Assembly (NCBI GenBank): GCA_965220135.1
Contig: OZ244802.1
Location: forward strand, 2,532,239 to 2,596,238
Direction: 5' to 3'
DNA: 64,000 nt
DNA from: Chloroflexota bacterium
GTDB taxonomy: Bacteria; Chloroflexota; UBA11872
The notes under the pieces are model-generated. The model was given only the letters and a program-made list of their open reading frames with translations, searched no databases and was not told the origin of the DNA. The position numbers and the translations under genes were made by a program. Below, in pieces: positions 38,685 through 61,107 of this stretch; within the stretch, counting starts at the first letter, position 1; every line of letters starts with the position of its first letter.

Positions 38685-38685
38685 C

Positions 38686-43236: not shown

Positions 43237-43255
43237 AGCAATTCCTCTTGGGAGT

Positions 43256-45883: not shown

Positions 45884-45944
45884 CGGAACCACTCCTGCCG
45901 CCTGGCAACACCGATAGAGTTCGATCCTACGGCTCCTCGCGCGC

Positions 45945-46367
45945 CTAAGCGTCCACCAATTCGATCCGGTCACCGTACCGGCGGAAGTCCGCGCCATTGA
46001 ACGTCAGCAGCCGGCGCTCGCCGTGGGCGAGCATCGTCGCCACGATGTTTGCGTCGTGAATCTGCCGTCCACCAACGGGGAATTCCCGGCACAGGTCTAA
46101 CAGCGACTCGGTAACCAGGGAGCCGTCCTCAAGAATCTCGAAGTTGCGAAGCAGTCTGCGGACGTCAGCAAGGGCGTCTCCTCGGGTTATGCCCACCGGC
46201 CAGGTCTGCGGACGTGTGACGACGGCCAGGTACTCGCGTACGACCTGCCGGCTGATTCTCAGCGGCTCAGGGTCTCGAAACGCACGCTCCAGGCTTGCCC
46301 GAGCAGCGTCGTGGTCTGGCGCGCCAGGAATTCGGGAATTCACCAGCACGTTGGTATCAACAAACAT
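45945..46367 (-). CDS. PIN-domain ribonuclease toxin (VapC-like)
   Basis: Start MFVDTNVLVNS. PIN acidic residues in FVDTNVL, IHDANIVATML and LLTFNGADF. Confidence 0.7.
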   Translation of the reverse strand: MFVDTNVLVNSRIPGAPDHDAARASLERAFRDPEPLRISRQVVREYLAVVTRPQTWPVGITRGDALADVRRLLRNFEILEDGSLVTESLLDLCREFPVGGRQIHDANIVATMLAHGERRLLTFNGADFRRYGDRIELVDA

Positions 46368-46375
46368 GGCGGCGG

Positions 46376-46780
46376 CTAGACCCGCTCCTCGTAGAGATCC
46401 TCTCGCCTGAGGCTCAGGCCTTCGGGCCACACCGCCGTGGGGTGGACCGGCCATACCTCGTCGAGCGAAGGCCTGGCTTCAGGCTTGGGGTGCCTTCGCC
46501 TGAACAGCAGCGTCTCCGCATCCATATCAACCTCCGCCGTCTCCCATCCCGCGACGCTCCACGCCAGCGCGTGGCTGTGTCCGTTGCTGCGCTTCTGGTT
46601 TCCCCACCAGGGGCGGTGTAGCCGCGCGGACGGCGGCAGTTGGAATCCAACGACTGCCTCGATCTCGCCGAAAGAGGTCCTCCACTCCTGGGCCTGAAGA
46701 CTGTGCAGGTAGGCGTACAACCGCTGGTACTTGCCTCGTTCCACCATCTTTCGGTACCTGTCGCTTCGGTCCACGACCAT
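46376..46780 (-). CDS. hypothetical 134-aa protein immediately upstream (8-nt gap) of the PIN toxin gene; candidate atypical antitoxin or partner
   Basis: MVVDRSDRYRKMVERGKYQRLYAYLHSLQAQEWRTSFGEIEAVVGFQLPPSARLHRPWWGNQ...HALAWSVAGWETAEVDMDAETLLFRR... This is a conserved-looking block (FxEIE..G..LP.SAR....WW.N......HA.AW..AGW) not typical of VapB DNA-binding folds. Confidence 0.45.
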   Translation of the reverse strand: MVVDRSDRYRKMVERGKYQRLYAYLHSLQAQEWRTSFGEIEAVVGFQLPPSARLHRPWWGNQKRSNGHSHALAWSVAGWETAEVDMDAETLLFRRRHPKPEARPSLDEVWPVHPTAVWPEGLSLRREDLYEERV

Positions 46781-46847
46781 GTGAATCCTGCTCTCGGTTG
46801 GCCTGCCCGGAGGGAATCCGCGCGGCCAAGTATATGGTAGTGAGTTA

Positions 46848-46990
46848 GTGACTCCACTTCGCCGCCAGGACCACGCTGCCCAACAGCCGGTTGTTGCCCT
46901 GCTCCCATGGCAACTCCGGCCGCAGCAACGGCGCCCCCGCAAACCCCTCCACGTACTCCAACTCGAGATAGTCAAAGAAGAGCAGCTTTT
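46848..46990 (-). pseudogene. 5' fragment (about 47 codons) of a paralog of the 44495-45883 GH-like gene
   Basis: Translates MKKLLFFDYLELEYVEGFAGAPLLRPELPWEQGNNRLLGSVVLAAKWSH*. It is about 80% DNA identity to the 5' end of the full gene, with a 33-nt indel, and stops after about 47 codons. Confidence 0.6.
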
Positions 46991-47377
46991 TCATTGACAG
47001 AACTCCCGGGCCTTTGCGGAGCCTGGGCCAGTCCGGCAGTCGCTAGAGGTACTTCCCATGAGCCTGGTCGACAGATGAGAGCCTCCGTACTCGGCAGGGG
47101 GAATCGACAGACCCAACCGAGCGGAGGCTCTCATGGCGCTTCCGTGGCGCTGGCGCTGGCCCGCGTGCGGGGAATGGGCTACGAACTCCGACCGCCCACG
47201 GCCGCCCGAGGTCGCCTCGCGCTCTCCCTACCCCCCGCGGCGATTGCACGCTTGCGGGGCGACCGAGCAGCGCAGGCGGAATCCCGCCGGATGTCGTTGC
47301 CTTGTGGGTTGGGCCTCGACTCGAACAGACGACTGACCTCCGAGCCGGTACCCGAGATGCGCGCGGGCCGTCGGGCT

Positions 47378-47542
47378 CTAGCCGCCGTCCCTTACTGGCG
47401 TCCTCGTGCCACGCGGCTTGAAATCGAACTCGTCGCTATCGGCACAGGCCCCAACGGTCGACGCCACCGCGACTCCGAGGATCAGAACAGAAACCGCGAG
47501 CAGACGGCGACGGCCGAGATTCGGATCACGTCTTCCCCGCAT
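47378..47542 (-). CDS. possible small lipoprotein (speculative)
   Basis: MRGRRDPNLGRRRLLAVSVLILGVAVASTVGACADSDEF... is a signal-peptide plus lipobox-like sequence inside a longer ORF. No homology evidence. Confidence 0.25.
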   Translation of the reverse strand: MRGRRDPNLGRRRLLAVSVLILGVAVASTVGACADSDEFDFKPRGTRTPVRDGG

Positions 47543-47814
47543 CGATGTGTCCCCTGCGCATGGCGAGCGGCGGGCGGCCCCCACGATTGCTTCTACGGAC
47601 CATCGCCGCCCCAAGCGTCTGAGTCTAGCCCAGGCAGTTCTTCCAGGTTCGAGGCCGGGGGCTGTCTGCGAGCACGTCCGAGATCCGCGACCAAGCCTGG
47701 TTCCCGCAGACATCGTTGATGGATCCGCGCGTGAAGGCGACCATGGCCCACGCGCGACCGGTCTCACGAGTCAGCGTGCCAGCCGGGTAGATTCGTACGC
47801 AGCAGGAGCGGCCA

Positions 47815-48702
47815 GTGCAACGGAACGCGGACAGCAAAACAGGCGGAGCCTGCTGCGCACCGCTGCGCCTTCCCGACCTTGTACGCGATCTGATCAGCCT
47901 CGGCGTCCGCCCCGGCGACCTCCTCATGGTCCACAGCTCCCTCCGTAGCCTCGGACTCGTCGAGGGCGGACCGGAAACCGTCGTCGATGCCCTCCTGCAA
48001 GCCCTTGGGCCCCAGGGCACCCTGGTTGTCCCCACGTTCACCTATCCGACGGCCGGGGATCCCGCGTTCGTTTTCGATCCGGTCCACACGCCCTCGCAGA
48101 TGGGCGCGATCTCCGAGGCGGCGCGCCAGCGACCCAACACCCACCGCAGCATCCATCTCGCGCACAGCATCGCCGCCATCGGGCCGCTGGCCCAGACCAT
48201 CGCGACCTCCGGCGGCGCGTCCGGCTGGGACGCCGACAGCCCCATGCGGCAGGTATTCGATCGCAACGGCCGCTACCTGCTGCTCGGCGTCCCCTACCAG
48301 AACCTCACCGCCATGCACCTGTGCGAAGTGTGGCTGGGACTGCCGTACCGGCAGCCTCGTACGTCGGAAGGCCGCATGCGTCATCCCGACGGCTCCACCA
48401 CGCCCCTGGTCAACATCGGCACCCCGCCGCTCCCCGGCCACCCCGGCAGCGACTACAACCGCCTCGGCCAGCGCATGGAAGACGCAGGCCTCGTCAAACT
48501 AGGCCCCGTAGGCAACGCCATCGCCCGTCTCCTCGACGCCCAAGACATTCGTGCAGCAGCCCGCCAACTCACCCGCCAGGACCCAAACGGCTTCCTCCAG
48601 CAGGGCCACGCCGTCACCAAACTGACCTACGGCCACACGGTCAATTCAGACAAGGGCGAACACTGCACCGTCGATCCAACCCGCATCTACGACGCGACCT
48701 GA
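47815..48702 (+). CDS. AAC(3)-family aminoglycoside N-acetyltransferase-like protein
   Basis: LMVHSSLRSLGLVEGGPETVVDALLQALGPQGTLVVPTFTY and SPMRQVFDRNGRYLLLGVPYQNLTAMHLCE match the conserved AAC(3) (Antibiotic_NAT) blocks. Confidence 0.75.
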   Translation: MQRNADSKTGGACCAPLRLPDLVRDLISLGVRPGDLLMVHSSLRSLGLVEGGPETVVDALLQALGPQGTLVVPTFTYPTAGDPAFVFDPVHTPSQMGAISEAARQRPNTHRSIHLAHSIAAIGPLAQTIATSGGASGWDADSPMRQVFDRNGRYLLLGVPYQNLTAMHLCEVWLGLPYRQPRTSEGRMRHPDGSTTPLVNIGTPPLPGHPGSDYNRLGQRMEDAGLVKLGPVGNAIARLLDAQDIRAAARQLTRQDPNGFLQQGHAVTKLTYGHTVNSDKGEHCTVDPTRIYDAT

Positions 48703-48743
48703 GGCTCAAGCCCGACACGTCATAGCGACCCAACCTCCGGCCC

Positions 48744-48822
48744 GACCGCGCCCCGGAGACCTTTGCACAACGCCTCTCCCCTTCAGAGGAGACGCCGTCT
48801 TATTCCCTCTCCCTGGCAGGGT
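48744..48822. repeat. copy A of a dispersed GC-rich repeat family (about 80 bp)
   Basis: ccggagacctttgcacaacgcctctccccttcagaggagacgccgtcttattccctctccctggcagggtg aligns at about 75% with 57243-57320 (ccggaaacctttgcacaacgcccctcgccctcgcgagagggacggctcttgttccctcttgccgtgggagaggg). Confidence 0.6.
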
Positions 48823-48979
48823 GTCCAGACGGAGGACATCATTTGCACCCGTTCGGAGACATTGTGAACACATCCAGCGCTGAGATCGAAGACCGGGATG
48901 TGCCGTTTGCCGAGCGACGAGTGAGCGAAAAGCGGGCGTGATCCGGAGTCCAAAGACCGGGGAGTGTGAAGGTGAACAG

Positions 48980-49040
48980 TTGACACGCAAGCACGCACTT
49001 GCATATCGTGCGCCCTGACATGCAAGCGGACACTTGCCTT
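48980..49040 (+). promoter_or_regulatory. putative arsR promoter with tandem imperfect palindromic operator sites
   Basis: TTGACA (48980-48985), a 17-bp spacer, then ATATCG. Two similar palindromes overlap or follow the -35/-10: GCAAGCacgcACTTGC (48988-49003) and GCAAGCggacACTTGC (49022-49037). Confidence 0.45.
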
Positions 49041-49051
49041 AGACTGGTCGT

Positions 49052-49336
49052 GTGGACGTATATCGCGCGATCGCTGACCCAACCAGGCGGGCCATCCTGG
49101 ATGAACTCGTCGATCGGTCAGGTCAATCGCTCTTCGAAATCTGCGCACGCCTGACCATGAAGCACGGCATCAACTCCTCGCGGCAGGCGATCACCCAACA
49201 CCTGGGCGTCTTGGAGGCCGCCGGGCTGATTCGCACCCGGCGCCAGGGCAGGTCAAAGCTCCATTGGTTCCAGGGCGGCCCGCTCAAGGCCATCGCCGAG
49301 CGTTGGCCGATCGCAACAGATGAAAGGGACACGTGA
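49052..49336 (+). CDS. ArsR/SmtB-family transcriptional regulator
   Basis: MDVYRAIADPTRRAILDEL...GQSLFEICARL...SRQAITQHLGVLEAAGLI is the winged-HTH ArsR signature. Confidence 0.85.
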   Translation: MDVYRAIADPTRRAILDELVDRSGQSLFEICARLTMKHGINSSRQAITQHLGVLEAAGLIRTRRQGRSKLHWFQGGPLKAIAERWPIATDERDT

Positions 49337-49339
49337 ACG

Positions 49340-49735
49340 ATGAGAATCCACCTCGCCGGCGTCTTCGTAGACGACCAGCAAAAGGCGCTTCGCTTTTACA
49401 CCGAAACGCTTGGCTTCCAGCTCAAGCACAACATTCCCTTGGGCGAATACGCCTGGATCACCGTGGTATCCCCGGAAGACCCTGAGGGGACGGAGTTCCT
49501 GCTCGAGCCTGATGCCCATCCCGCGGTCCGTCCGTTCGTGCAGGCGCTTGTGGAGGACGGGATCCCCAGCACCTCCTTCGCGGTCGACGACGTGCAAGCC
49601 GAATACGAGCGTCTCCAGGCAAAAGGCGTGCAATTCGTACAGCCGCCAACCGACCTCGGCCCGGTCATCACCGCGGTACTCGACGATACCTGCGGCAACC
49701 TGATCCAGATCCAGGAGCAGAAACCCCAACCCTAA
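49340..49735 (+). CDS. VOC family protein (glyoxalase/bleomycin-resistance fold), 4 nt downstream of arsR
   Basis: 131 aa. RIHLAGVFVDDQQKALRFYTETLGFQL...ITVVSPEDPEGTEFLL...CGNLIQIQEQ. Confidence 0.8.
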   Translation: MRIHLAGVFVDDQQKALRFYTETLGFQLKHNIPLGEYAWITVVSPEDPEGTEFLLEPDAHPAVRPFVQALVEDGIPSTSFAVDDVQAEYERLQAKGVQFVQPPTDLGPVITAVLDDTCGNLIQIQEQKPQP

Positions 49736-49838
49736 CGATCGTGACCAGTCGCCCCAGCCCCCATGGGTCGTCGCCGGTCGCCAATCTCAACGGGTCGCAC
49801 CAGAGCATCAAAGGCACGGCTTCGCTGTTGCAGGGAAG

Positions 49839-50126
49839 TCAGGTGCCTGTCGAGGCGGTCCGCGGATGCCCTCCGAGAGTCCTTTCGCGAGCGGCGCTCA
49901 AGGACGGTGAGACGAAAACACCTCGGGTGCGTCCCAGCCTCAGGTTGTCCTCGGCAATCGCGTAAGCCACCGCATACCCCTCGGGCCCGGATATCTCTAC
50001 ATTCGAGTTGCGCAGCGCCTGCTCAATCGAATCAATCCGCAAATGCACCGCCCCAATCTCCCGCGCCAGCCCCGCGGCAACCGCTATCTTTCCCACGGCC
50101 GGAAGACCTCCGAATATCAGCAGCAT
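49839..50126 (-). pseudogene. truncated P-loop kinase (AAA_33-like) gene fragment
   Basis: MLLIFGGLPAVGKIAVAAGLAREIGAVHLRIDSIEQALRNSN... carries the Walker A GxxxxGK. After about 75 aa the frame degenerates (…RTRGVFVSPSLSAARERTLGGHPRT*), so the expected ~170-aa kinase body is missing. Confidence 0.45.
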
Positions 50127-50534
50127 GTGATCATGGATACTGCGCCTGCTGCGCATTCATTCGACCGCTTGAATAGTAGCGACGCGAATGCCTGTCCCGA
50201 CTGTGCGCTGACATGTGTTCGTGGGCCGCCTCGGCGGTATGTGTCCTTTCACTGGATCGTGATGTCGTATGGCGAGTCGTAGAGAGGCCACTAGATGGAT
50301 AAATCTGAGGGAAATGATTGGCAAGAGCGAATTACCACAGAATCACTCCCACCATCCTAGGAGCACATTCGGTTGACAGCCGATAGCATTGGACTTGTAC
50401 GTCACTTAGCAATTGCATTTTGCCAAAAGATTTGGTGACATCTCAGTCTGTGGCCGGACGCAAAACCTCGGCAGGCATAGCAAATCGCGAAATGCGGGTC
50501 ACGCGGACATTGGGTTCATGATAGGATTCCTATA

Positions 50535-53258
50535 GTGCCTGCTTCGTCACTTCGTGAACGAATCGTTGCCTTTCTTCAGGTCTCAAGCCGCCTAGAGATG
50601 TTTCGAATACCGACTTTGCGCTTATTGCTGCAGGGCACGGCTGTGTCAAAGGTGCGGGTCTCGCTTTCCGGTGTTCTGGTCCTCCTGCCGCTCTTTGGTG
50701 TCATCGTGGCCCTCGGTATCGCGGAAACGCCACCAATTCCGTGCCTTCCAGACCCAAGGGACGCCACGGCGGTCCTTGGAACTATTCTGGCCGCACAAGT
50801 AACGATCACAGCCCTAAGTCTAGCCGTGACACTCTTCATGATGCAGGCGATAAGTTCGAGAACGGATGTCGACGACCGGATGTACGTTGAATATGTTCGA
50901 CGTTCTTGGATACGCGTGTTCTTTTGGGGGAGTCTCACAGCCGTCGGCGTTACGGGTACCCTCCTCGTCCGCGAAGGGTTCATCGCTGGGTCGGGCGCAT
51001 CGATCGATGATCTGCGGAACACTAGCAACTTCGTTCTGACGGCAGCGATAGCTTCTATTCTTAACATGATGCTCGTGGGTGCTCTTTTTGAGCGGTCGAT
51101 TCACTACTCTCGGCCGCACCGGTGGCGGGACCTGCGTAGGGATCTTGCGAAATCCGATGTGCGGGAAGCAGTAAAGGCCTTCGTGCAGCGGACCCGCCGC
51201 ACTCAGGACGCGGAGACAGCTGGTGGATCCGACTTCACAGTCTTGCTTCCCGACTCAACTGAAGGCTCTGCCGATGAGGCAGTAAGGGCCTTGCTGGACG
51301 ATGCACGGAGGGCGATGTCGGAGCGGCGACATGAGGAGTTTAGTCGGTCCTTGGACTTCATTCGAGAACTCATCGACTACGCAATGGAGGAACTAAAGGG
51401 ATCGGGTATCCAATGGGAAGCTCCAGGAACTCAACCAAGGTGGCCGCCCTTGAAGGAGTTAAGCCGAAGTCTCTACACATTCCGAGAAGACGTGATTCGT
51501 AGCGGTGACCGAGAGTACATACTCGGACTTCTGCGCTTTGACTACAGACTTACAAGTGCGGGGATGCGTGCGCGTTGTGGTGAATTGTTCAGTGTCGGCT
51601 TGAGCGGGCACCGATGGAATTACCAGATTGCGATCCGGTTCGGTACAGGAGAGTTCCAAGAGTTGCTCCGCGACCGATTCTCTCAGAACGCGAACATGAT
51701 CATGATACGCGTAGAACCAGTTGAGGCATTTCCGTACGCCAGCGAATTGGTTAAACAGCAAGAAAGGTTGCTATCAGATGCGATTAACAGCGACCGTCCG
51801 ACCGATTTTGACGAGCTGCATACTGGCTTTCTGGACTGCCTCCGTGCAATTCGTCTTCACTGGCGAGTTGATAGCCAGACTTCTCCAAGAGTATTTCAGC
51901 TATATGAAAAGCTGGAGCAAGCCTACCGCATTGTCCTGATGGGGCTCGGAGGGCGCGCTATGGTTCTGGCTCAGCAGGACAGGGTGGCCAGGGTGAAATC
52001 GTTCTTGGACGTAGCCCGTCGATCACACGTCGACCTTTGGCAAATGGCAGACGACTTAGTGGTTGCACTTGCGTATGAGGACAACGATAACTTCTCTATT
52101 TGGCAAGAATGGGAGACCGAACGCGCTCGACCATACCAAGCAATGAGTATAGTGTCCGAGCGTTATCCCCTAACGTTCTTTGTCTTACGACTGATGGATC
52201 TAGCTTCCGATTCGATGCGAGTTTTTGGCTTGCACGGCAGGTCGCAGCGGGTGCTTGATTGGTTCACGAACAACGTTGAAAGCATTGGACACTTTGTAGA
52301 CACGGACCTGGCCCCAGCCTTTGAGGAGCGAATTGAACTCGCCAAGGGGATCCTTCTAGCCGCTGTCAGTGAGGATGAAAAGGCGGAAGACTATGACATT
52401 ATCAACCGTGAAATTAGTTCAGCCAGGGTCGCGACGCTAAGGTCTGAGGTGTATATGGCTGCTTTTGGCAGTAACACACTAGAACGCCTGTTCGAGCGAG
52501 CAGATGCGCGCTTACACCTTCCAGCAGATGCTGGTGACGATCCTCCGGAACGCGTGATTCAGGTGTTAGAGCATAAGGGTTATCTCACAGAGCCGTCTGT
52601 TGGTGCGCTCATCGACTATGGCCCGCTTGATGGTCACCAATGGGGCTATGATCTGTCTGTCGACGTGCTGCAGAGATTCTGCGAGGCGGTCGATGAGGCG
52701 ACTGAGCTGATGGTTTCGCTCGATACGCCTGGCGAAGTGCTGCAAGGAATTGACTTGGCTATAGATGACCTTTCCGCTCCGGACCAATTGGCTGTGGTAT
52801 TGGCGGGAGATTGGACTCAGATTAAAGTAGGGCTCAACACAGAGAATCCGGAAGGTCATGAGGCGTCTTGGACGTTGTCGCGCGCCGACCGGGTGGGAGA
52901 GATAGGGCGTTACCAAGGCCATCCAATCCTCAGCGCTCAAGACTATGAAGATCGGTGCGTGTACGTTGTTGATCTCGCTGGGTGGGGTCAGTTCGTACGC
53001 GCACGGACAGTCGGGGAGCACGACTTGCGCATCGCGATAAAGCCGATCTCAGTCAATCGAGCCAAGAAACTCCTAGCAGCCAATCCCAAGCATTTCGCCA
53101 GTCAGCCAGACGAGGAGTCAAAGCTCCGGAAGCTACAAACCTATGTTGAGGTGGTAATCGGTGCCCGCACTGGGTTCCGCGTCGCAGACGCTACCCGTGC
53201 TCGGCGGATTGTCCCGATCGGCCAAGTGGAGGAGAGTGGCGAAGTGGCTCAACGCTAG
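50535..53258 (+). CDS. large membrane-anchored hypothetical protein (four N-terminal TM helices plus ~700-aa cytoplasmic domain of unknown function), low-GC
   Basis: 907 aa (the real start is possibly the internal MFRIPTLRL). TM helices near res 45-65, 85-110, 130-150 and 165-185. The rest is helix-rich with no Walker, nuclease or other motif I can assign. GC is clearly below its surroundings. Confidence 0.7.
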   Translation: MPASSLRERIVAFLQVSSRLEMFRIPTLRLLLQGTAVSKVRVSLSGVLVLLPLFGVIVALGIAETPPIPCLPDPRDATAVLGTILAAQVTITALSLAVTLFMMQAISSRTDVDDRMYVEYVRRSWIRVFFWGSLTAVGVTGTLLVREGFIAGSGASIDDLRNTSNFVLTAAIASILNMMLVGALFERSIHYSRPHRWRDLRRDLAKSDVREAVKAFVQRTRRTQDAETAGGSDFTVLLPDSTEGSADEAVRALLDDARRAMSERRHEEFSRSLDFIRELIDYAMEELKGSGIQWEAPGTQPRWPPLKELSRSLYTFREDVIRSGDREYILGLLRFDYRLTSAGMRARCGELFSVGLSGHRWNYQIAIRFGTGEFQELLRDRFSQNANMIMIRVEPVEAFPYASELVKQQERLLSDAINSDRPTDFDELHTGFLDCLRAIRLHWRVDSQTSPRVFQLYEKLEQAYRIVLMGLGGRAMVLAQQDRVARVKSFLDVARRSHVDLWQMADDLVVALAYEDNDNFSIWQEWETERARPYQAMSIVSERYPLTFFVLRLMDLASDSMRVFGLHGRSQRVLDWFTNNVESIGHFVDTDLAPAFEERIELAKGILLAAVSEDEKAEDYDIINREISSARVATLRSEVYMAAFGSNTLERLFERADARLHLPADAGDDPPERVIQVLEHKGYLTEPSVGALIDYGPLDGHQWGYDLSVDVLQRFCEAVDEATELMVSLDTPGEVLQGIDLAIDDLSAPDQLAVVLAGDWTQIKVGLNTENPEGHEASWTLSRADRVGEIGRYQGHPILSAQDYEDRCVYVVDLAGWGQFVRARTVGEHDLRIAIKPISVNRAKKLLAANPKHFASQPDEESKLRKLQTYVEVVIGARTGFRVADATRARRIVPIGQVEESGEVAQR

Positions 53259-53304
53259 GCAACGCATCGAGACTCCTGGTCACTCAATGTGGCCTCCAAT
53301 AGTC

Positions 53305-54027
53305 TTAGAGCAGAGGACTCACGTCGGAAGCGACGCCGAAATGGTCCGAGAGTTTCCTCTCGCCGTGGATGTTGCTGATCGCAGCCACGGAGTCGACCGC
53401 CCAATCCGCACTAAAGGCAATGTGATCGATGCTCTTGCGTCCCTGGAAGGCAAGATCCGCCGTCATGATCCGCAGGTTCGGCTCAAAGGCCTCTTGGAGC
53501 GCCAGCCGAAGCGCCCGAGGCGCCCGGCTTCCCTGCCCGATTCTCTGGTTGAAATCCCCCATCACGATCAGACGCTTGGCGTCCACCTGTTCGAGCACTT
53601 CGGAAAGCCCGGTCAGGTACTCCTCATGGTCCTCCCACCGCCCTCTGCGCTCCGCCCCCCGCCGAGCCTCGGTCCGCGACCCAAACCACGGAATGCAGAT
53701 CCCAATCACCGCCACCTCGCCCACCGACGTCTGCGTCACGCCCGACACAAACCGCCCCGGCGGCATCGAGTCCATCCCCAGGTCATCAGCCTGGTTCCAC
53801 GGTTCCCTCGACCAGAGCAACACCTTACGCCGGTTCTTCTGTGGCCCGTATCCATACTCCGGCCGCGAGCAGATCGCGTGCCCAGATTGGGCAATTAGCT
53901 CGTCATGCGTCTCGGTCAGACAGATAATCTCCGGGCCATGTCGATCAATACGACCCAGGATTTCAGGCGTTCGCCACGACCTCGGCGTAGCAAACTGAAC
54001 ATTCCAGTTGACAATGCGCAGAGACAC
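53305..54027 (-). CDS. endonuclease/exonuclease/phosphatase (EEP, DNase-I-like) family protein
   Basis: MSLRIVNWNVQFAT...ICLTETHDE...LIVMGDFNQR...SIDHIAFSADW...LSDHFGV covers the canonical EEP blocks (N/E catalytic pair, GDFN, SDH). Confidence 0.8.
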   Translation of the reverse strand: MSLRIVNWNVQFATPRSWRTPEILGRIDRHGPEIICLTETHDELIAQSGHAICSRPEYGYGPQKNRRKVLLWSREPWNQADDLGMDSMPPGRFVSGVTQTSVGEVAVIGICIPWFGSRTEARRGAERRGRWEDHEEYLTGLSEVLEQVDAKRLIVMGDFNQRIGQGSRAPRALRLALQEAFEPNLRIMTADLAFQGRKSIDHIAFSADWAVDSVAAISNIHGERKLSDHFGVASDVSPLL

Positions 54028-54195
54028 AACCTTACGTCTTTCGCGTATATGCCAAGGCGACTAGTCGTTCTCTTTGACGCTCATTAGCAATAGGTTCATT
54101 CACAGGCTAGCATGCTTGCGTCTGGGGCGATCAATGTGCCACGCTGAACATCAACGCTATTCAGTCATAGATGCTGGGATGCTAGGGAGACTGCC

Positions 54196-55161
54196 ATGCC
54201 TGAACGTGAAGGCGAGAGCGAACAGTTGGCCGTTCGCGACAAGTGGGAGCATGAGGCACACAACTTCACGCCTTGGCTGGCCGAGAATCTTCAGGCGCTG
54301 GGCGATTCGCTGGGGTTAAAGCTGGAATGGATCCAATCGGAAGTGCCGATAGGTCCGTATTTTCTCGACATTCTGGCGAGAGAGAGTCGCGAGGATGTGA
54401 AGGTAGCGATTGAGAATCAGTTGGAAGAGACCAATCTCCACCATCTCGGCCAGCTGCTCACTTATGCGACCGGATGCGGAGCGCACATTGCTATATGGGT
54501 GGCGCCGGAATTTGGCTACGAGCACGCCCAGGCTCTCCATCTGCTCAACGAATGGACGACTGAGCGGATTCGCTTCTACGGCGTGAAAGTCGAGGTCATC
54601 AAGAAGGCTGGTGCTCCGTGTCCAGAGCCGAGGTTCCGCGAGATCGTCTACCCCGGCGGCTGGAACAAGTCGGCCACTCTTCCGTCCGGAGAGATGCCGC
54701 TATCCAAACGGCGGCATCACGAGTTCTTTCAACCCATCGTTAGTAGGCTGCTGGCAGACGGCTTTGCCGATAGTGCGTACCAGAGATTTGACCAGGCTGA
54801 TCGCACCTTCCCCTCCCGCCTCCACAAGGGCATAGCTTACGCAGTGTCTTTCTACAAAGCGAGGGCTTGGGTATCACTCCATATTGAATTGGATGATATT
54901 CAGCAGACTAAGCAGGTGTTCGATGAGTTGATGACCTCCCGAGAGCAGGTCCAGGAGAGTGTGATCGTCGGTTCCGGCAGAGATTGGCGGTGGAACAGGT
55001 ATGACAAGTTCTTGTTCTCTAGCATTAGCATCGTAGGCGACGGGTCAATCAACGATCCTCCGGCAAACCTGGAGGAGACCAGAGCCTGGATGCTCGATCT
55101 GCTACCGAAGCTTAAGGAGGTGTTCGACCCGCACCTCGAGGAGATTTTGGCTTCCATGTAG
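54196..55161 (+). CDS. hypothetical protein with N-terminal PD-(D/E)xK-like nuclease-fold signature
   Basis: FTPWLAENLQALGDSLGLKLEWIQSEVPIGPYFLDILARESREDVKVAIENQLEETNLHHLGQLLTYATG is a D...E-N-Q...HLGQ block characteristic of a restriction-endonuclease-like fold family (DUF4268-like). The C-terminal 150 aa are unassigned. Confidence 0.55.
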   Translation: MPEREGESEQLAVRDKWEHEAHNFTPWLAENLQALGDSLGLKLEWIQSEVPIGPYFLDILARESREDVKVAIENQLEETNLHHLGQLLTYATGCGAHIAIWVAPEFGYEHAQALHLLNEWTTERIRFYGVKVEVIKKAGAPCPEPRFREIVYPGGWNKSATLPSGEMPLSKRRHHEFFQPIVSRLLADGFADSAYQRFDQADRTFPSRLHKGIAYAVSFYKARAWVSLHIELDDIQQTKQVFDELMTSREQVQESVIVGSGRDWRWNRYDKFLFSSISIVGDGSINDPPANLEETRAWMLDLLPKLKEVFDPHLEEILASM

Positions 55162-55464
55162 CCATCAATAGGTTGGACCGGCCGCCATCCGTCCAGTGCT
55201 ACACAAGACCATCGGCGAGGCCGGCAGGCTCAAGAAGTCCTATTGGACGGGAAGTCACTATGCCTACTCCGCCACGTCGGAGAAATTCGTGATAGCGACC
55301 TCGCCTTCCGGAAACTCCGGCACGATCTTGAGCTTGCCGCCTACAGCGTCAATGTTAGACCGCAGACTTGGCTCGCCAGCTTCGGCCTGACGCGGCGTAC
55401 ATTGCTGAGTCTCACAGTGGAACCGGCCGTGCATAAGCTGTAAACGATTTGTCCTTTTGCAGCC

Positions 55465-57105
55465 TCACACCCAGCTCGCAACCGTCTCGACAATCCACTC
55501 ACCGTTTGCCTGGGCGGAGGCTCTGATAGTCACATACTCCTGCGGACTAGTGGACACTTGATGAGAGATATCCATACGCTTGTATTGAGACTCTATCAAC
55601 TGGCCATCGCTGCTGTAGAGCCCGGCGCGACCCAAGTGGTCGACAATAAACTGATAGGTAGTTCGATACTGTTGTTCAACCAGACAGCCCGACCCTACGT
55701 TCACTCGAAGGCCAGGCTCACAATTCTCAGTAATCTCTGGGAGCGGCGAAGGGGCAGTAGAAGTCGGCGGTGCTGACTGATTCTGTCGGTTGTCTCCCCA
55801 ACAGGCGATTGATCCACCTTCGAGAATTCCGCAGCCGTGTGATAGACCCGTGGAGACATCGATGAATGCATGGCTCGCGGGAATCCGGTCGAGCTCGATG
55901 CTACCACCCAGTAGGGTAGTCCAACATGTCGCCGAGCCTTCCAAATCAAGCCCGCATCGATATGCTTCCGAACCATGACTGACATGGCTGCCAAGGTGAG
56001 AAAGCCGGAGATTAGGAAATGGGTGGTGGATGTCTGCCGAAAATTTGCTCCAGCAAGCCACAGTCCCGTCAACTGTCAAGCCGCACGTACTATCGAAACC
56101 TCCACTTATGGATATAAACTGTTCTTGTAGATACAGGACTGTCTGATCTTTAACATTCCCCCAGCATAAGGCGGAGTTGTCCTGTCGAATACCGCACGTA
56201 TAGTCGAAGCTCGCAGTAATTGCCGCGAACTTCTCCCCCGGTGGAACCGATGACTGGCCTGCCCAGTTGGCGCCCCAGCAAACCGCTGAACCATCCGTTC
56301 GGAGAGCGCACGCGTGGCTGTCTCCGCTGCTAATGGCGGTGAACTTTTCGTCTTGCGGAGGAGGGCCCAGCGGTTGTGGGTGGCCGAGGATCGGTCCGTT
56401 CGTCTCAGGCCGTCCTCCCCAGCATGCTGCGGAACCATCCACGCGGAGTGCGCATACATGAGCGGCGCCGCTACTGACCGCGATGAATTTCTCGTCGTGC
56501 GGAGGCGTCGGCTGACCATACTCGCCGCTTCCCCAGCACACGACCGTTCCGTTGGCTCGAAGCGCGCAGGTATGTAAGTGCCCGCTGGTGATATCAGTGA
56601 AGCGGTCAGCGCCACTCGATTGGACGGCGGGGCGCTCCGGCTGAGGGGCTGCGAGGTCGAACGCCCAACCAAACACGCCGCGTACGTCCTCCCGGTGATC
56701 GTTTCGGCAAGCCGGTTCGGCCTGGTCGCCAAACACTCGCTGGTAGATCTCCACGTTGTCGTGGTTGCCGAGGTGGTTCTCGACGATGTCGTTGAGCTCC
56801 ACGCAGTCCGCCGGCCACGCGAGGTCGGGAACGTCCGACTGCGATTCCGAGCCAGCCTCATCGAACGCCCACGCAAACACTCCGCGCACGTCATCCCGGT
56901 GGTCGTTCTGACAGGCCTGTTCGGCTTGGTCGCCAAACACCCGCTGATAGATCCCAACGTTGCTGTCGTTCCCCAGGTGCGCCTCGACAATGTCGTTCAG
57001 ATCAACACAAGTAGTTGGCCACTGGGCAAAGACTGGCGTCGCGAGTGCCGCAGTTGTTAAGGCCGCAACAACCACCGCTGCGCAGATCGCCCTGGTGATT
57101 CTCAT
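55465..57105 (-). CDS. secreted RCC1-repeat (beta-propeller) protein with duplicated N-terminal ~70-aa module
   Basis: Signal peptide MRITRAICAAVVVAALTTAALATPVFAQ. Two near-identical units: CVDLNDIVEAHLGNDSNVGIYQRVFGDQAEQACQNDHRDDVRGVFAWAFD and CVELNDIVENHLGNHDNVEIYQRVFGDQAEPACRNDHREDVRGVFGWAFD. Multiple RCC1-like repeats follow (HTCALRANGTVVCWGSGEYGQ, HVCALRVDGSAACWG, HACALRTDGSAVCWGANWAGQ and others). Confidence 0.75.
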   Translation of the reverse strand: MRITRAICAAVVVAALTTAALATPVFAQWPTTCVDLNDIVEAHLGNDSNVGIYQRVFGDQAEQACQNDHRDDVRGVFAWAFDEAGSESQSDVPDLAWPADCVELNDIVENHLGNHDNVEIYQRVFGDQAEPACRNDHREDVRGVFGWAFDLAAPQPERPAVQSSGADRFTDITSGHLHTCALRANGTVVCWGSGEYGQPTPPHDEKFIAVSSGAAHVCALRVDGSAACWGGRPETNGPILGHPQPLGPPPQDEKFTAISSGDSHACALRTDGSAVCWGANWAGQSSVPPGEKFAAITASFDYTCGIRQDNSALCWGNVKDQTVLYLQEQFISISGGFDSTCGLTVDGTVACWSKFSADIHHPFPNLRLSHLGSHVSHGSEAYRCGLDLEGSATCWTTLLGGSIELDRIPASHAFIDVSTGLSHGCGILEGGSIACWGDNRQNQSAPPTSTAPSPLPEITENCEPGLRVNVGSGCLVEQQYRTTYQFIVDHLGRAGLYSSDGQLIESQYKRMDISHQVSTSPQEYVTIRASAQANGEWIVETVASWV

Positions 57106-57242
57106 TGCACCTCGCCTCTCGTCAATTGGCAGGAGACAGTTCCTGGCGCCCGTGCATGGACTGTTGACTCCGTGTTCTGCGGGTGACGCTCGCCGTCAGG
57201 TCGTGTTCCGCACATCGGATCGGCGATGAGCACGACAAACAG

Positions 57243-57415
57243 CACCGCCGGAAACCTTTGCACAACGCCCCTCGCCCTCGCGAGAGGGACGGCTCTTGTT
57301 CCCTCTTGCCGTGGGAGAGGGTCGGGGTGAGGGTCTTCCGGGCAACCGCCCCAGGATTGCGCAAAGGTCTCTCCTGGGGGAGAGGGTCAGGGTGAGGGGT
57401 CTTCCGGGCGCAACG
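57243..57415. repeat. copy B of the dispersed repeat family, containing an internal ~38-bp tandem direct repeat
   Basis: 57243-57320 aligns to 48744-48822. The unit tgggagagggtcggggtgagggtcttccgggcaac (57305-57340) recurs as gggggagagggtcagggtgaggggtcttccgggcgcaac (57374-57412). The flanking cctttgcacaacgcc and ggattgcgcaaaggtc form an imperfect inverted pair. Confidence 0.6.
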
Positions 57416-57581
57416 CTTCCCAACACCCCAACCCGCGACGGCCTCCATCGCACGCCCGCGCCCGGCGAAGCTCATGCAGCGGCATTTCGGCCAACAACTC
57501 CCGCTTCACTTCGTCCACGCGCCGACGTCGCTCCGGGGTGAAGTCCTTGGTCAGTTCGCTAAACGGATGTCGTCCAGTCAT
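57387..57581 (-). pseudogene. 5' fragment of an XRE/HigA-like HTH antitoxin-family gene that runs into the repeat element
   Basis: MTGRHPFSELTKDFTPERRRRVDEVKRELLAEMPLHELRRARA matches the N-terminal leader plus helix 1 of XRE antitoxin-type HTH proteins. The ORF continues as non-homologous sequence (CDGGRRGLGCWEALRPEDPSP*) inside the 57300-57415 repeat. Confidence 0.45.
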
Positions 57582-57722
57582 TCGATCAACCCCTCCTTTC
57601 GCAACTCCGCCAGCGGCACAAACGCCTCATGGAACCTGTCGTTCCCCGTCTTGTCTCAGCCACCTCAAGGCCTGTCGCCGTTACCATGACTCTTGACGAG
57701 ACTCCCTGAATCCCTCAGCCCC

Positions 57723-59051
57723 ATGCTCGACACCCTCATGTCCGTCGACGAGGCGATCTTCACGCGCCGGACCTGCCGCAAGTTTCGGAAGGACCCGGTG
57801 TCGCCGGAGACCCTCACCAAGATCATCGACGCCGCGCGCTACGCGCCCAGTTCCTGCAACCTGCAGCTCTGGGACTTCGTGCTCGTCAACGACCCCGAGA
57901 CCAAGGCCGAAGTCGCGGAAGAAACCCGCTACGTCCACCTGGCCCCGGTCTCGCTCTTCGTCTCCTACGGCAACAACTACACCCGCGAGAACTACGCCTG
58001 GGTCCAGAGCGCCGCCGCCGCCATCCAGAACATGATGCTCATGGCCCACAGCCTCGGCGTGGCCAGCTGCTGGGTCGACACCCTGGGCGATGTCGACCGC
58101 ATTCGCCGCATTCTGGGCCTGCCGGCCGAGCGCGAAATCCTGGCTCTGGTGCTCTTCGGCTACCCGGAGTTGATCCCCAAGGCCCCCCGCCGCCGCGCCA
58201 TCGACATCCTTCTGCACTACGACAAGTACAAGGGCCGTCTCAACTGGCCCAGCAGCGATGACCCCGAGGAATGGACGCTCGAACAAATCCGCGACTTCCA
58301 GATGGCCAAAATCCGCAACGGCGCCCGCTACAACAAACCCGTGCCCTCGGAACGCGACGCCGTCCTGGAAGCGCTCGAAGACTTCGTCGACGTGCAGGAA
58401 GGCCGCTGGCTGGACGTCCTACCGCTCACCGGCCTCTACACCGAGGAGATCGCTTCCAGGTACCCCAAAGTCGACCTCACCTTCGCCGAAATGACCGACC
58501 AGGTCTTCGAATTCGTCCAGGACCGCGCCCCGCGCACCCTGCGTCACGAGCTCTACCCCGACGCCTTCCACGAGGGCCCCGAGGGCTACGACGTGATGTC
58601 CCTGGTCTTTCGCCTCGAGGGCTACCCGCGCGACGAGCGCCGTAGATTCCTCTCAACCATGCGCCGCCGCATCAACGACGACGGCCAGCTCTTCCTGGCC
58701 TTCATCAACCGCCGCTCCTACCACCGCCCGCTGCGCTGGATGCGCGGCCGCATCGGCCACTCCGGCGTCGAATACGCCCTGGCGCCGGACCCCAGCCTCG
58801 GCCCGTTCAAGGCCGCCACGCCCGGTGAAATCCGCGCCGACCTCCGCGCCACCGGCTGGCGCGTGCGTGACCGCCGCCACTTCTTCGCCATTCCCCCGGG
58901 CGACGAAATCGAGTTCCGCGCCGGTCGCAAGGGCCGCAAAGTCAAGCTCGCCGGCCAGACCCTCACCCGCATCAGCCGCCTGCTCCAGCCGGTCGACCCG
59001 GTCCTCGGGCCAGTGGCCCGCATCCACGCCTGGGACGTCGTACCGGCCTGA
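57723..59051 (+). CDS. nitroreductase-family domain fused to a ~270-aa C-terminal domain of unknown function
   Basis: N-terminal IFTRRTCRKFRKDPV...IIDAARYAPSSCNLQLWDFVLV...SCW are nitroreductase motifs (~res 1-180). The C-terminal half has no clear motif; WLDVLPLTGLYTEEIA is only weakly Rossmann or methyltransferase motif-I-like. Confidence 0.65.
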   Translation: MLDTLMSVDEAIFTRRTCRKFRKDPVSPETLTKIIDAARYAPSSCNLQLWDFVLVNDPETKAEVAEETRYVHLAPVSLFVSYGNNYTRENYAWVQSAAAAIQNMMLMAHSLGVASCWVDTLGDVDRIRRILGLPAEREILALVLFGYPELIPKAPRRRAIDILLHYDKYKGRLNWPSSDDPEEWTLEQIRDFQMAKIRNGARYNKPVPSERDAVLEALEDFVDVQEGRWLDVLPLTGLYTEEIASRYPKVDLTFAEMTDQVFEFVQDRAPRTLRHELYPDAFHEGPEGYDVMSLVFRLEGYPRDERRRFLSTMRRRINDDGQLFLAFINRRSYHRPLRWMRGRIGHSGVEYALAPDPSLGPFKAATPGEIRADLRATGWRVRDRRHFFAIPPGDEIEFRAGRKGRKVKLAGQTLTRISRLLQPVDPVLGPVARIHAWDVVPA

Positions 59052-59061: not shown

Positions 59062-61107
59062 CTACGTCGAGGTGCGAACCCGGTAGATCACCGCTGCGCC
59101 GGACGGATCCCGAAGGGCTTCCTCGAAGCGCCCGTCCGCCAGCTTCTCCTCAATCGCGGCTGCCTGGGCCTCGGTCAGCTGGGCCGGATCGATCAGCACG
59201 TAGCCGATTTCGAGTTCCTTCAAAGCGCGGTCACTCAGCTCCTGTTGTGCGCGCCAATAGGTGTGCCGGTACTGGTCGACCTGCGAAAGCGAGTGATACC
59301 CGTACGGGACGAACTGGCCGGTCTGGGCTGCGATGTCCAGCGTGATCCCGGGCGCACCGCGGTTAAACAAGTCCACGGTGGTCTGCGCGCCGTGCACGGC
59401 CAGCAGTCGCTCGTGCACCTCGGTTTCCCGCAAGAGGAAGTCACGTGCGCCCGGCGGTAGCCGGTCCACCGTCACGGGCGGCTGCCCCACCATGCGCGGC
59501 CAGGCCATGGCCGAAAACACGAACGCCCCGCACAGAACGCCCGCCGCCAACAGCGCGGCGCCGCCGGCTAACCTCCGCCGCAGGCCGGCTGCCGGAAGCC
59601 GCTCGGCGCCCAGGATGGCCAGCGCGGGGACGGTCAGGGTGAACCCGGTCTGTGCCAGGCGGTTCAGATTCGGCGCGGACTCTTCGGCCCTCAGGGCGAT
59701 CACCACGGCCACGTTTATCGCGGCGATCAGCAGCCAGGGAGTGGCGTCGCTTGCCCCGCGCCGATAGGCAATCCACCCAAGCGCGAGGGCCAGCAGCCAG
59801 AACAGCAGCCCGCCGTCAACCAGGAATTCGGCGCTCAGAATGGGGGTGTCGTGCCGTCCCTGTGTAGGCCACGTTACCCAAGGGCCCGAGCTATTGAACC
59901 CCCAACTGGGCAGGCTGCCGAAATGCGCGCTGTTTGGCGCCAGTTCAAGACGCCCCAGGTCGGGGTCGTCGCCGAATGTTCCGGCCAAGACGCCGCTGGT
60001 GGTCTGGGCCAGCAGCAGAGCCAGAACAGTGACGGCCGCCAGCACGGCCGAGGCGGCCATCGCCTGCCGAGGCCGCGAAGGACGCCGCACCCAGAACCAC
60101 AGGCCCAGCCCGGTCGGCACCGTCAGCATCAGGAACTCATTGCTGGGCGCCAGGTAGACGAGCGCCGCCGCCGCGACCGCCCACGTCGCGAGCGAATACC
60201 CCCGCCAGATCCGCGTGACGGCTGCGATGGCGACAACCGCCGGAATCAAGCCATGCAGCGCGGTGACGTTGTGCGTGGCCATGGCAAAGGGACCGCCCAG
60301 GAACAGTCCGCTCCACGCGATCGTCTCGGGCGCTCCCACGATTACGCCCAGCACGTCGCCCAGCCCCCGCTCCCGGATGGCCGCGGGCGTCAGTAGCCAA
60401 TACAGCGGCCCCCAGGCATAGGCCACGGCCGCGCCGCCCAGCGCCCATCCCGGACCAATCCGGCCGGCCAGCGCCCCGTACAGCGTCAGCACCAGGACGA
60501 CGGCGGTTGACGCCACCAGGTGAGGCATCACGGCCGGCGTCAGCACGTCCAGCAGGTCCACCGCGCCCGCGCCCAGCGTGTGCAGCGTGACGCGGTACTG
60601 GAGCGCGTATTCCGGCTCGAACGGATTGACCACCGGGAAGTTGCCGCGCGCGATGCCGGCCACCAGCCCGCTGTGCATGTACAGCGTGCCCGCATCCGCG
60701 CGTCCCACGGTTCCCTCGGCCCAGAAGGCGAGAGCAGAGAGATAGGCCAGCAACCCGGCGACCGAAACGCCGGCGATCGTGAGGCGGCGGTCCCGACGCG
60801 GTTCGGGCGCGGGCAACCGCCGCAGGACCAGCGCGCCAAGCGCGCACAAGACACCCGCCACCAGGAGCGCGCTGCCCACGGGCATGACTCGCGGCAGCCA
60901 GAGCAGCGGCAGCCCCAGCGCCACCAGCCCGACCCCGCTGCCCAGGGCGGCGCGACTCAGCCGCGTGGGCGCCGCCAACACGCTGGCGGCCACGCGATAT
61001 CCCAGCGCGCCGGCGGCGGCCAGACACAAGATCAGCGCGGTCAGACTGAGCCACATCATGACCCGCGAGTGTGACGAGGGCGCCCGCGGTCCGCAATGGA
61101 CGGCCAA
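59062..61107 (-). CDS. large polytopic membrane protein, putative GT-C-type glycosyltransferase (uses lipid-linked sugar donors)
   Basis: About 665-680 aa, at least 12 predicted TM helices, and a soluble C-terminal ~150 aa. Adjacent and divergent to a Dpm1/GtrB-like GT2. Start is ambiguous: TTG at 61107 or ATG-ATG at 61059. Confidence 0.5.
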   Translation of the reverse strand: MAVHCGPRAPSSHSRVMMWLSLTALILCLAAAGALGYRVAASVLAAPTRLSRAALGSGVGLVALGLPLLWLPRVMPVGSALLVAGVLCALGALVLRRLPAPEPRRDRRLTIAGVSVAGLLAYLSALAFWAEGTVGRADAGTLYMHSGLVAGIARGNFPVVNPFEPEYALQYRVTLHTLGAGAVDLLDVLTPAVMPHLVASTAVVLVLTLYGALAGRIGPGWALGGAAVAYAWGPLYWLLTPAAIRERGLGDVLGVIVGAPETIAWSGLFLGGPFAMATHNVTALHGLIPAVVAIAAVTRIWRGYSLATWAVAAAALVYLAPSNEFLMLTVPTGLGLWFWVRRPSRPRQAMAASAVLAAVTVLALLLAQTTSGVLAGTFGDDPDLGRLELAPNSAHFGSLPSWGFNSSGPWVTWPTQGRHDTPILSAEFLVDGGLLFWLLALALGWIAYRRGASDATPWLLIAAINVAVVIALRAEESAPNLNRLAQTGFTLTVPALAILGAERLPAAGLRRRLAGGAALLAAGVLCGAFVFSAMAWPRMVGQPPVTVDRLPPGARDFLLRETEVHERLLAVHGAQTTVDLFNRGAPGITLDIAAQTGQFVPYGYHSLSQVDQYRHTYWRAQQELSDRALKELEIGYVLIDPAQLTEAQAAAIEEKLADGRFEEALRDPSGAAVIYRVRTST

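Follow-up and report, generated by a model that had tools for sequence, protein, structure and literature searches.

A low-G+C gene segment in an uncultured Chloroflexota bacterium as the probable part of a mosaic accessory/defence hotspot between sbcC and a nitroreductase gene

Chromosomal defence-island hotspots, located between conserved core genes, are known from Pseudomonas aeruginosa and Vibrio. We analysed a stretch of 64,000 nucleotides (nt), hereafter referred to as the window, from the genome of an uncultured Chloroflexota bacterium (assembly GCA_965220135.1, contig OZ244802.1, positions 2,532,239–2,596,238 of the forward strand), with the focus on a low-G+C segment that encodes (i) a membrane protein of 907 amino acids (aa), designated TM907, (ii) an EEP-superfamily enzyme, (iii) PDC-S11, a candidate defence nuclease, and (iv) a secreted RCC1-repeat protein. 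The HK97 fold, predicted here for part of TM907, is known from the capsids of tailed phages and herpesviruses, gene transfer agents, phage-inducible chromosomal islands and encapsulins; to our knowledge, all HK97-fold proteins described so far are soluble shell-formers. MdgA (NucS+DUF4268), with which PDC-S11 is compared below, is a single-gene, modification-dependent anti-T4 nuclease that degrades modified T4 DNA in vitro and is inactivated by the E77A mutation (bioRxiv 10.1101/2025.02.28.640651). Comparison with related genomes revealed that the low-G+C segment is likely to be the most deviant part of a hypervariable accessory/defence hotspot of about 16 kb, which constitutes a mosaic of modules with separate histories and not a single insertion. 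The hotspot and its flanks are as follows:

38629–41487, plus strand: sbcC, encoding an SbcC/Rad50-like SMC ATPase (Pfam SMC_N, AAA_23 and SbcC_Walker_B); left conserved flank
41488–57692: the whole variable hotspot, from sbcC to the nitroreductase-methyltransferase gene, delimited by comparison with relatives
57693–59051, plus strand: gene for a nitroreductase fused to a methyltransferase-like domain (Pfam Nitroreductase, 1.5e-31); right conserved flank and anchor gene

One genome per species was scanned with the protein of the right flank (57693–59051), which yielded approximately 20 syntenic loci (loci of relatives are numbered with the prefix L), all of them in uncultured Chloroflexota; these bacteria are probably sponge-associated, judging from the names of related metagenome-assembled genomes alone. 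The orthologues of the anchor gene product show 93–98% aa identity in L001–L014 and L019–L021, and 79–82% in L015–L018. In the latter, more distant relatives the hotspot interval is absent: the sbcC orthologue ends 60–70 nt before the nitroreductase gene in L015–L017, and the gap amounts to about 1.7 kb in L018. Since sbcC adjoins the nitroreductase gene in these genomes, the entire 41.5–57.7 kb region constitutes an insertion hotspot. An empty site was found for this region only, and not for the narrower segment (50.16–57.45 kb) that the preliminary description of the window had proposed as an inserted island. That segment does lie within DNA missing from the same site in L015–L018, and its low-G+C core forms the right half of the hotspot.

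The content of the interval differs among L003–L014, L021, L028, L045 and L046, and varies gene by gene among relatives of about 90% identity. L003 and L004 contain the EEP, PDC-S11 and RCC1 genes (about 90–93% nt identity) without the TM907 gene; L045 and L046 contain a kinase gene and the TM907, EEP and PDC-S11 genes without the RCC1 gene; L006, L007, L013 and L014 have kept the EEP gene with other partners. A YaaC-like protein is encoded in the hotspot of L013. The position of the TM907 gene is occupied by HEC-05/GmrSD in L013 (1e-219), by a homologous 587-aa open reading frame (ORF) in L014, and by genes for an MT-A70 methyltransferase and a DndB/DpdB-like protein in L006. Elsewhere in the hotspots there are an N6_N4 methylase fused to Mrr_cat (L012) and an SMC/LmuB-like ATPase (L010). 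Across the related genomes, the same chromosomal interval thus holds HEC-05/GmrSD, the methyltransferase with the DndB/DpdB-like protein, the methylase-Mrr fusion, the LmuB-like SMC protein and PDC-S11, which qualifies it as a defence hotspot. This alternative cargo of the relatives is also low in G+C (0.47–0.60).

The residents of the hotspot considered below, preceded by a gene upstream of its left flank, are:

37323–38684: sbcD-like gene upstream of sbcC (Pfam Metallophos)
48753–48820, plus strand: left copy of a repeat resembling a repetitive extragenic palindrome (REP) or a miniature inverted-repeat transposable element (MITE), a 32-nt direct repeat 88% identical to 57248–57279
49052–49735, plus strand: genes for an ArsR-type helix-turn-helix (HTH) protein (49052–49336) and a glyoxalase/VOC protein (49340–49735) (Pfam HTH_20 and Glyoxalase)
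49926–50126, minus strand: remnant of an AAA_33 P-loop kinase gene, aa 1–67 of 182 (tblastn, 84–91% to the L046 and L045 kinases; weak AAA_33 match)
50127–50534: divergent intergenic region (408 nt) between the kinase and TM907 genes, collinear with L045 and L046, with no insertion junction
50535–53258, plus strand: TM907 gene (907 aa; four transmembrane (TM) helices, helical-repeat domain, predicted HK97-fold domain)
53305–54027, minus strand: gene for the EEP-superfamily enzyme, 240 aa, cytoplasmic (PF03372, 1.3e-12)
54196–55161, plus strand: PDC-S11 candidate defence gene (NucS/PD-(D/E)xK-like N-terminus and DUF4268)
55267–55389, minus strand: degenerate 3′ remnant of an HTH_37 antitoxin gene, aa 66–106 (tblastn, 68% to the L045 HTH protein)
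55465–57105, minus strand: gene for the secreted RCC1-repeat beta-propeller protein (RCC1_2, 1.8e-34, 117 bits, six stretches)
57248–57410, plus strand: right REP/MITE-like element of two units with an internal inverted repeat, replacing HTH codons 45–106
57450–57581, minus strand: 5′ remnant of an HTH_37 antitoxin gene, aa 1–44 of 106 (89% to the 106-aa HTH_37 protein of L045; PF13744, 3.5e-10)
57581–57655, minus strand: remnant of a Gp49/HigB-like toxin gene, the last 25 codons (96–120) with a 9-codon deletion

We propose that these residents may be grouped into the following modules: (i) the block of the kinase and TM907 genes, (ii) the EEP gene and the divergently transcribed gene of the PDC-S11 (MdgA-like) nuclease, (iii) the decayed Gp49/HigB-HTH_37 pair, (iv) the secreted RCC1 protein gene with its adjacent REP-like element and, further left, (v) the ArsR-glyoxalase module. 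Such modules would have been gained, swapped and lost among related strains. Homologous recombination anchored in conserved flanking sequence, chiefly the start of the nitroreductase gene, would be the likely route; dispersed repeats would be additional sites of deletion, and no integrase would take part. In L013, L014, L045 and L046, 5′ fragments of the nitroreductase gene (aa ~2–79) are present inside the hotspot beside the 3′ end of the EEP gene (at 6029–6202, 6473–6550, 4242–4495 and 8776–8952, respectively), an indication that incoming DNA was inserted at the start of this gene along with a replacement copy of it.

The same fragments, which directly border the EEP gene on its outer side, resemble an attL/attR duplication. 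The right part of the hotspot, from the EEP gene to the toxin-antitoxin pair, might thus represent an integrative element that used site-specific recombination to insert at the start of the nitroreductase gene, brought along a replacement for that 5′ end and decayed, its integrase being lost later; this might form one step in the mosaic history. An IS110 transposase encoded in the L045 block and a serine recombinase encoded near the TM907 homologue in L049 would fit this origin. However, no tyrosine or serine integrase was detected in the window or among the annotated ORFs of the inspected loci, and the IS110 gene marks an insertion sequence and is no island integrase. In the window the duplicated fragment has been lost, the stop codons of the TM907 and EEP genes being separated by only 46 nt. 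Moreover, no two relatives have the same content between the presumed att copies, a pattern more typical of swapping by recombination. We consider an integrative element of this kind unlikely. In agreement with the preliminary description, the window contains no tRNA gene and no integrase was detected; the ORFs scanned from 41 to 59 kb have neither integrase nor transposase domains. The att repeats expected at the ends of an integrase-mobilised island were not found either, the sole flanking direct repeat (48753/57248) being a dispersed REP-like element.

The preliminary description had also reported a drop in G+C content with a corresponding change in codon usage. Sliding-window G+C and tetranucleotide profiles bear this out. 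The G+C content (calculated in 500-nt windows) amounts to 0.51–0.58 across 50,000–56,249, with a bump of 0.62–0.63 at 53,250–53,999 that corresponds to the EEP gene, shoulders of 0.61–0.65 at 48.5–50.0 and 56.25–58.5 kb, and values of 0.65–0.72 in the remainder of the 64,000 nt. All 2-kb windows between 49 and 58 kb are tetranucleotide outliers, the sole other outlier being located at 13–15 kb. The G+C content of third codon positions (GC3) is 0.575 in the TM907 gene, 0.743 in the EEP gene, 0.680 in the PDC-S11 gene and 0.625 in the RCC1 gene, versus 0.82–0.90 in the flanking genes. The four genes were found at the positions given previously (ORF check, Pfam and PADLOC); a foreign-like composition and a non-housekeeping gene content are both supported. 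It had been anticipated that a uniform G+C profile, or relatives bearing the same genes with typical composition, would speak against an inserted island. The dip holds, and the genes, which are indeed common to relatives at this locus, have an equally atypical composition there.

The latter observation is compatible with another explanation, namely that these are old, vertically inherited genes whose low G+C content results from gene-specific constraints, e.g. AT-rich codon use in weakly expressed or fast-evolving genes. Orthologues occur at the same locus in species diverged by about 10% and are equally low in G+C, with no sign of amelioration. In each of the six relatives' loci for which it was determined, the G+C content of the TM907 gene is below that of the adjoining DNA: it amounts to 0.55–0.56 (GC3 0.58–0.59) in four of them, and to 0.59–0.62 (GC3 0.65–0.70) in L049 and L050. 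This explanation is opposed by the patchy presence of the genes among close relatives, by the occurrence of unrelated genes in the slot elsewhere and of no interval at all in L015–L018, and by the location of TM907 genes at unrelated sites in other genomes. Strictly vertical descent is therefore improbable. A G+C dip can mark a long-lived mosaic instead of a recent insertion; here, the low-G+C core is best accounted for as the defence-like cargo of a long-lived hotspot anchored by its flanks.

A second low-G+C patch was observed at 13750–15000 (G+C 0.54–0.58, also a tetranucleotide outlier). It does not extend beyond the 3′ half of an ORF (12863–15034, plus strand) that encodes 723 aa and has no Pfam match.

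According to the preliminary description, the segment is a single island of about 7 kb inserted between truncated HTH and kinase genes, and its deletion would restore an HTH-kinase pair. Fragments of both genes do lie on the minus strand and bracket the low-G+C core. The comparison with relatives makes this scenario highly improbable, beginning with the kinase. The kinase fragment, placed previously at 49839–50126, is real, but its homology is confined to 49926–50126, the remainder of the ORF (49839–50156) being read-through. It represents 67 of 182 residues, scores 22.8 bits versus a cut-off of 27, and has a P-loop reading GKI where the relatives have GKT; it is not a full-length AAA_33 protein with a GxxxxGK[ST] P-loop. 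The region 49926–53283 aligns without interruption to 802–4157 of L045 (83%) and 5332–8686 of L046 (73.5%), so the 5′ part of the kinase gene, the intergenic region and the TM907 gene have been inherited as one block, and the insertion junction proposed at 50157–50280 does not exist. In L046 an intact gene for the 182-aa kinase adjoins the gene of the TM907 homologue. The breakpoint of the kinase gene in the window (49926) is on its 3′ side, away from the TM907 gene. The ArsR-glyoxalase module is located about 190 nt past this breakpoint, and the repeat copy at 48753 is also beyond it; the module is present in L003, L004 and L006, and both are absent from L046, where a DUF7662 gene directly precedes the intact kinase gene. 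A conserved pairing of kinase and TM907 was considered and rejected, because no AAA_33 gene is present in seven TM907 neighbourhoods located elsewhere.

The HTH gene has a partner of its own. The fragment described previously at 57387–57581 is genuine between 57450 and 57581, where it corresponds to aa 1–44 only, and reads on into the repeat element, as had been stated. The gene is intact (106 aa) in L003, L004, L006, L013 and L045, with island genes to its left in all five. The toxin gene precedes the antitoxin gene, whose start codon overlaps the toxin stop codon (ATGA); L003 and L004 have, upstream of the HTH gene, an intact gene for a 120-aa Gp49/HigB-like toxin (PF05973, 1.5e-15). From this overlap and the intact toxin frame it follows that the HTH gene belongs to its own toxin-antitoxin pair. 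The pair of the window resembles type II Gp49/HigB-HTH_37 systems in its toxin-first order, in the ATGA overlap and in the PF05973 and PF13744 matches of the relatives' intact copies. It differs from them in comprising only the last 25 toxin codons and antitoxin codons 1–44, i.e. both genes are remnants and there is no intact pair in the window. The HTH and kinase fragments are thus unrelated genes, each with its own partner, and do not represent the halves of a pair split by an island. The HTH gene stands beside the kinase gene in none of the approximately 20 syntenic loci; in L046 they are 6.6 kb apart, with island genes between them. Moreover, the four island genes do not co-occur as a unit.

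The truncation point of the HTH_37 gene coincides with the REP/MITE-like element at 57248–57410. The copies at 48753 and 57248 are the only two in the window, and further copies of this dispersed repeat occur in L003, L004, L012, L013, L018 and L046. In several genomes the element is located at one HTH_37 codon (~44–47, after RRARAL(TQR)), namely at 57248–57452 of the window, 12424–12499 of L046, ~3946–4000 of L007 and ~218–286 of L001. This recurrent position points either to a preference for this target site or to an inherited insertion that later underwent different deletions. No known RNA was matched by the element in Rfam, apart from one sub-threshold match (57365–57399, E 0.098), and the stability of its DNA fold is not significant relative to shuffled sequence (z −0.95).

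The degenerate 3′ remnant (55267–55389), between the PDC-S11 and RCC1 genes, occupies the position of the intact HTH gene in L045 (blastn: 55151–55368 of the window corresponds to 6373–6590 of L045), and the same remnant is present in L003, L004 and L007. It was at one stage regarded as proof of the insertion of an RCC1 cassette into the HTH gene. This proposal was withdrawn, since L003 and L004 carry the remnant plus an intact HTH gene, from which it follows that the RCC1-plus-repeat segment (55369–57452) requires at least two events.

An artefact of assembly or binning, conceivable in that the source is an assembly from an uncultured organism and an identical TM907 protein is encoded on a 3.56-Mb contig, can be dismissed, because the adjacencies (kinase-TM907-EEP-PDC-S11, PDC-S11-HTH remnant-RCC1-repeat and HTH-nitroreductase) recur in several independent assemblies from other samples.

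The most unusual resident of the hotspot is TM907. Hydrophobic segments fall within its first ~190 residues, and in an AlphaFold2 model derived from 44 homologues four TM helices at ~aa 36–186 are followed by an all-helical repeat domain (~194–655) and an alpha/beta domain of the HK97 (capsid/encapsulin-like) fold (~656–896). The domain limits were taken from the secondary structure of the model, whose mean predicted local distance difference test (pLDDT) score is 83.4, with values of 83–95 over residues 650–895. Positive charges, read directly from the sequence, place both predicted ends of the protein in the cytoplasm. Foldseek searches (PDB and BFVD) retrieved almost exclusively HK97-fold capsid proteins and encapsulins; the helical domain had only generic helical repeats among the matches. 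The cytoplasmic end of TM907 is therefore predicted, from the model, to have the shell fold of phage capsids and encapsulins.

At the level of sequence, TM907 had no match in Pfam, NCBIfam, PADLOC (only noise, E 0.017), PHROGs or the PDB sequence profile, and none of its 44 family members matched a capsid family (Linocin_M18, Phage_capsid and related Pfam or PHROG families). Weak matches to DUF2254 ("predicted membrane protein"; best E 0.017) were observed in 10 of the 44 family members and span aa 67–109 of TM907 (window ~50733–50861); they possibly indicate that the membrane module is remotely related to this family.

At least 214 homologues of TM907 were found in a word-indexed search, and an exhaustive profile search yielded 541 cluster representatives among 1.84 billion, mostly of 830–930 aa or fragments thereof. 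None occurred in the phage, plasmid and IMG/VR collections. In ten neighbourhoods the TM907 gene is solitary, with no conserved partner and with no cargo, scaffold, protease, portal or terminase genes beside it. Three of these neighbourhoods are at the present hotspot, two adjoin PIN or VapB genes, one is an island with TIR, MmeI, methylase and serine-recombinase genes, one is near Beta_protein and CAP12-PCTIR_TIR genes, and the remaining ones are among metabolic genes.

TM907 differs from Family 1 encapsulins and HK97 major capsid proteins in that it shares no sequence similarity with them, its HK97 domain is preceded by ~650 aa (four TM helices and helical repeats), and no cargo or virion morphogenesis genes are located nearby. 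The only TM extension recorded in a survey of encapsulins is C-terminal and resembles the major facilitator superfamily (Family 3) (PMC8346489). The architecture of TM907 is absent from this census, and text searches of the literature found no description of it.

The membrane-tethered HK97 domain would most plausibly engage components of phage capsid assembly or form capsomer-like oligomers on the membrane. As a hypothesis based on the modelled fold, the topology and a partial genomic association, TM907 may be an anti-phage capsid mimic or a membrane-bound capsomer. In the former case, the HK97 domain would detect phage capsomers, scaffold, portal or prohead protease, or assemble together with them; as a result, head assembly would be poisoned at the membrane or the TM domain would collapse the membrane potential (abortive infection). 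That TM907 constitutes an undescribed class of cellular proteins of fixed architecture (~830–930 aa), in which the helical domain and the TM helices hold the HK97 domain at the inner membrane face, and that it acts as a stand-alone anti-phage gene product by capsid mimicry, is a tentative and rather improbable proposal. A membrane-anchored, solitary, non-viral HK97-fold protein encoded in or near clusters of defence genes in several genomes would represent a novel exaptation of this fold. It would lead to a hypothesis open to direct testing, namely that mimicry of capsids serves immunity or that capsomers form a lattice bound to the membrane.

PDC-S11 matches the PADLOC profile PDLC04911 over its full length (8.4e-67, 223.7 bits; residues 7–315 versus 7–313 of the 318 profile positions), and DUF4268 is recognised with 34.2 bits versus a cut-off of 27. 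Pfam NucS was not matched. The N-terminal core, with residues D58, E73 and Q75, is invariant in seven orthologues, which are otherwise 63–87% identical. PDC-S11 is similar to MdgA in being a single gene with a C-terminal DUF4268, and its AIENQLEE motif at E73 resembles the VIVENKLDD region of MdgA E77, a link made by motif alone, the MdgA motif having been deduced from the mutagenic primer VIV(E>A)NKLDD. It differs from MdgA in having Q instead of K in the motif after the catalytic Glu. The assignment of PDC-S11 as a predicted type IV-like nuclease is moderately well founded; it would act as a single-gene, probably modification-dependent DNA nuclease against phages. The window thus supplies a diverged PDC-S11/MdgA-type nuclease as a candidate for defence screens.

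The EEP enzyme matches PF03372 over its full length (48.4 bits versus a cut-off of 24.5), and the motifs WNV, LTE, GDFN, IDH and SDH can be read in its translation. The label "DNase-I-like nuclease", used in the preliminary description, could not be upheld: the scores against the equivalog models TIGR00633 (23.8 versus 99.05 bits) and TIGR00195 (19.9 versus 182.55 bits) are far below the ExoIII cut-offs, and "nuclease" is thus an assumption. In other words, the enzyme is similar to the ExoIII/DNase I-like branch in PF03372 and the catalytic motifs, and differs from it in its ExoIII model scores and in having no PADLOC entry. A search for homologues yielded 1589 proteins; of the best 120, most have a single domain and a length of ~200–310 aa.

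The EEP gene is the most persistent gene of the hotspot, with orthologues in the loci of ten relatives. Its product might serve as a second candidate nuclease or as a phosphatase effector, for which the indications are weak. A two-gene system of EEP and PDC-S11 was considered and rejected, as the EEP gene occurs without PDC-S11 in L006, L007, L013 and L014; in L006, L007 and L046 it has a different, 358-aa partner. A gene for this protein (355–358 aa), absent from the window, lies directly upstream of the EEP gene and in the same orientation in three relatives (L006 6959–8035, L007 1193–2266, L046 9814–10890; a further copy is at L004 5615–6682). The protein has no match in Pfam, PADLOC or NCBIfam, and may form a two-gene system with EEP in the relatives. 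Additional, diverged EEP-domain genes (279–709 aa) were observed in the hotspots of L003 (4018–4935), L004 (1491–3620), L014 (598–1437) and L013 (2307–2939), and the 240-aa type is present twice in L013. EEP enzymes recur as cargo of the hotspot, and the family is a further candidate for defence screens.

The RCC1 protein is a non-defence gene product. It has six RCC1_2 stretches and a Sec-type leader read directly from the translation (MRITRAICAAVVVAALTTAALATPVFA, followed by Q; site VFA/Q), i.e. it is a secreted propeller. Its N-terminal module is duplicated by an internal 162-nt repeat (56657–56818 and 56861–57022). The gene is present in L003, L004 and L007 and absent from L045 and L046, and its product is one of many RCC1-repeat and other propeller proteins in the clade. 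The N-terminal module (56657–57022, aa ~30–160) recurs, at 66–83% identity, at the N-terminus of trypsin-like peptidases and TolB/DPP-like propellers of the clade, and appears to be a shared leader or anchor of secreted proteins.

Several further genes were noted in and beside the hotspot. Its left half contains a second HTH_37 gene (42451–42819, minus strand), a PIN-DUF7662 pair (45945–46454 and 46376–46975, both minus strand) and a gene for a 500-aa protein (44495–45997, minus strand) with no family match, which occurs as a tandem duplicate in L046. On the right-hand side of the anchor gene, a 681-aa gene (59062–61107, minus strand) with no Pfam match is variable among relatives: the aa identity is 91–92% in L003 and L004 and 74% in L001, L002, L011–L014 and L021, and the gene is replaced by other DNA in L005, L006, L008–L010 and L020. 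The anchor gene therefore has variable DNA on either side.

Several points weigh against the interpretation of the segment as part of a mosaic accessory/defence hotspot, or against elements of it. Among the genes of the window, PDC-S11 is the sole match to a catalogued (candidate) defence family; PADLOC gave no match for TM907, EEP, the kinase or the 358-aa partner of the relatives; and the RCC1, ArsR, glyoxalase and aminoglycoside N-acetyltransferase residents are non-defence genes. The exchange mechanism is reconstructed from end-states only, and the duplicated fragments of the flank gene would fit the loss of a site-specific integrase as well. As regards TM907, the HK97 assignment comes from a predicted model without sequence-level support, and defence or toxin-antitoxin genes are present within 8 kb in only about half of the ten neighbourhoods. 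Since several residents are non-defence genes, "accessory-gene hotspot" is a safer label than "defence island".

As an island, the locus is an ordinary, though well-resolved, flank-anchored accessory/defence hotspot. It resembles those of P. aeruginosa and Vibrio in (i) its fixed flanks, sbcC and the nitroreductase gene, and the empty site in distant relatives, (ii) the alternation of restriction, GmrSD and candidate systems in one slot, and (iii) the toxin-antitoxin remnants, low G+C content and lack of a dedicated integrase. It differs from them in that only one resident of the window belongs to a catalogued defence family, in that non-defence cargo (the secreted RCC1 protein, the ArsR-glyoxalase module and the acetyltransferase) is mixed in, and in its host; such hotspots are thereby shown to exist in uncultured Chloroflexota too.

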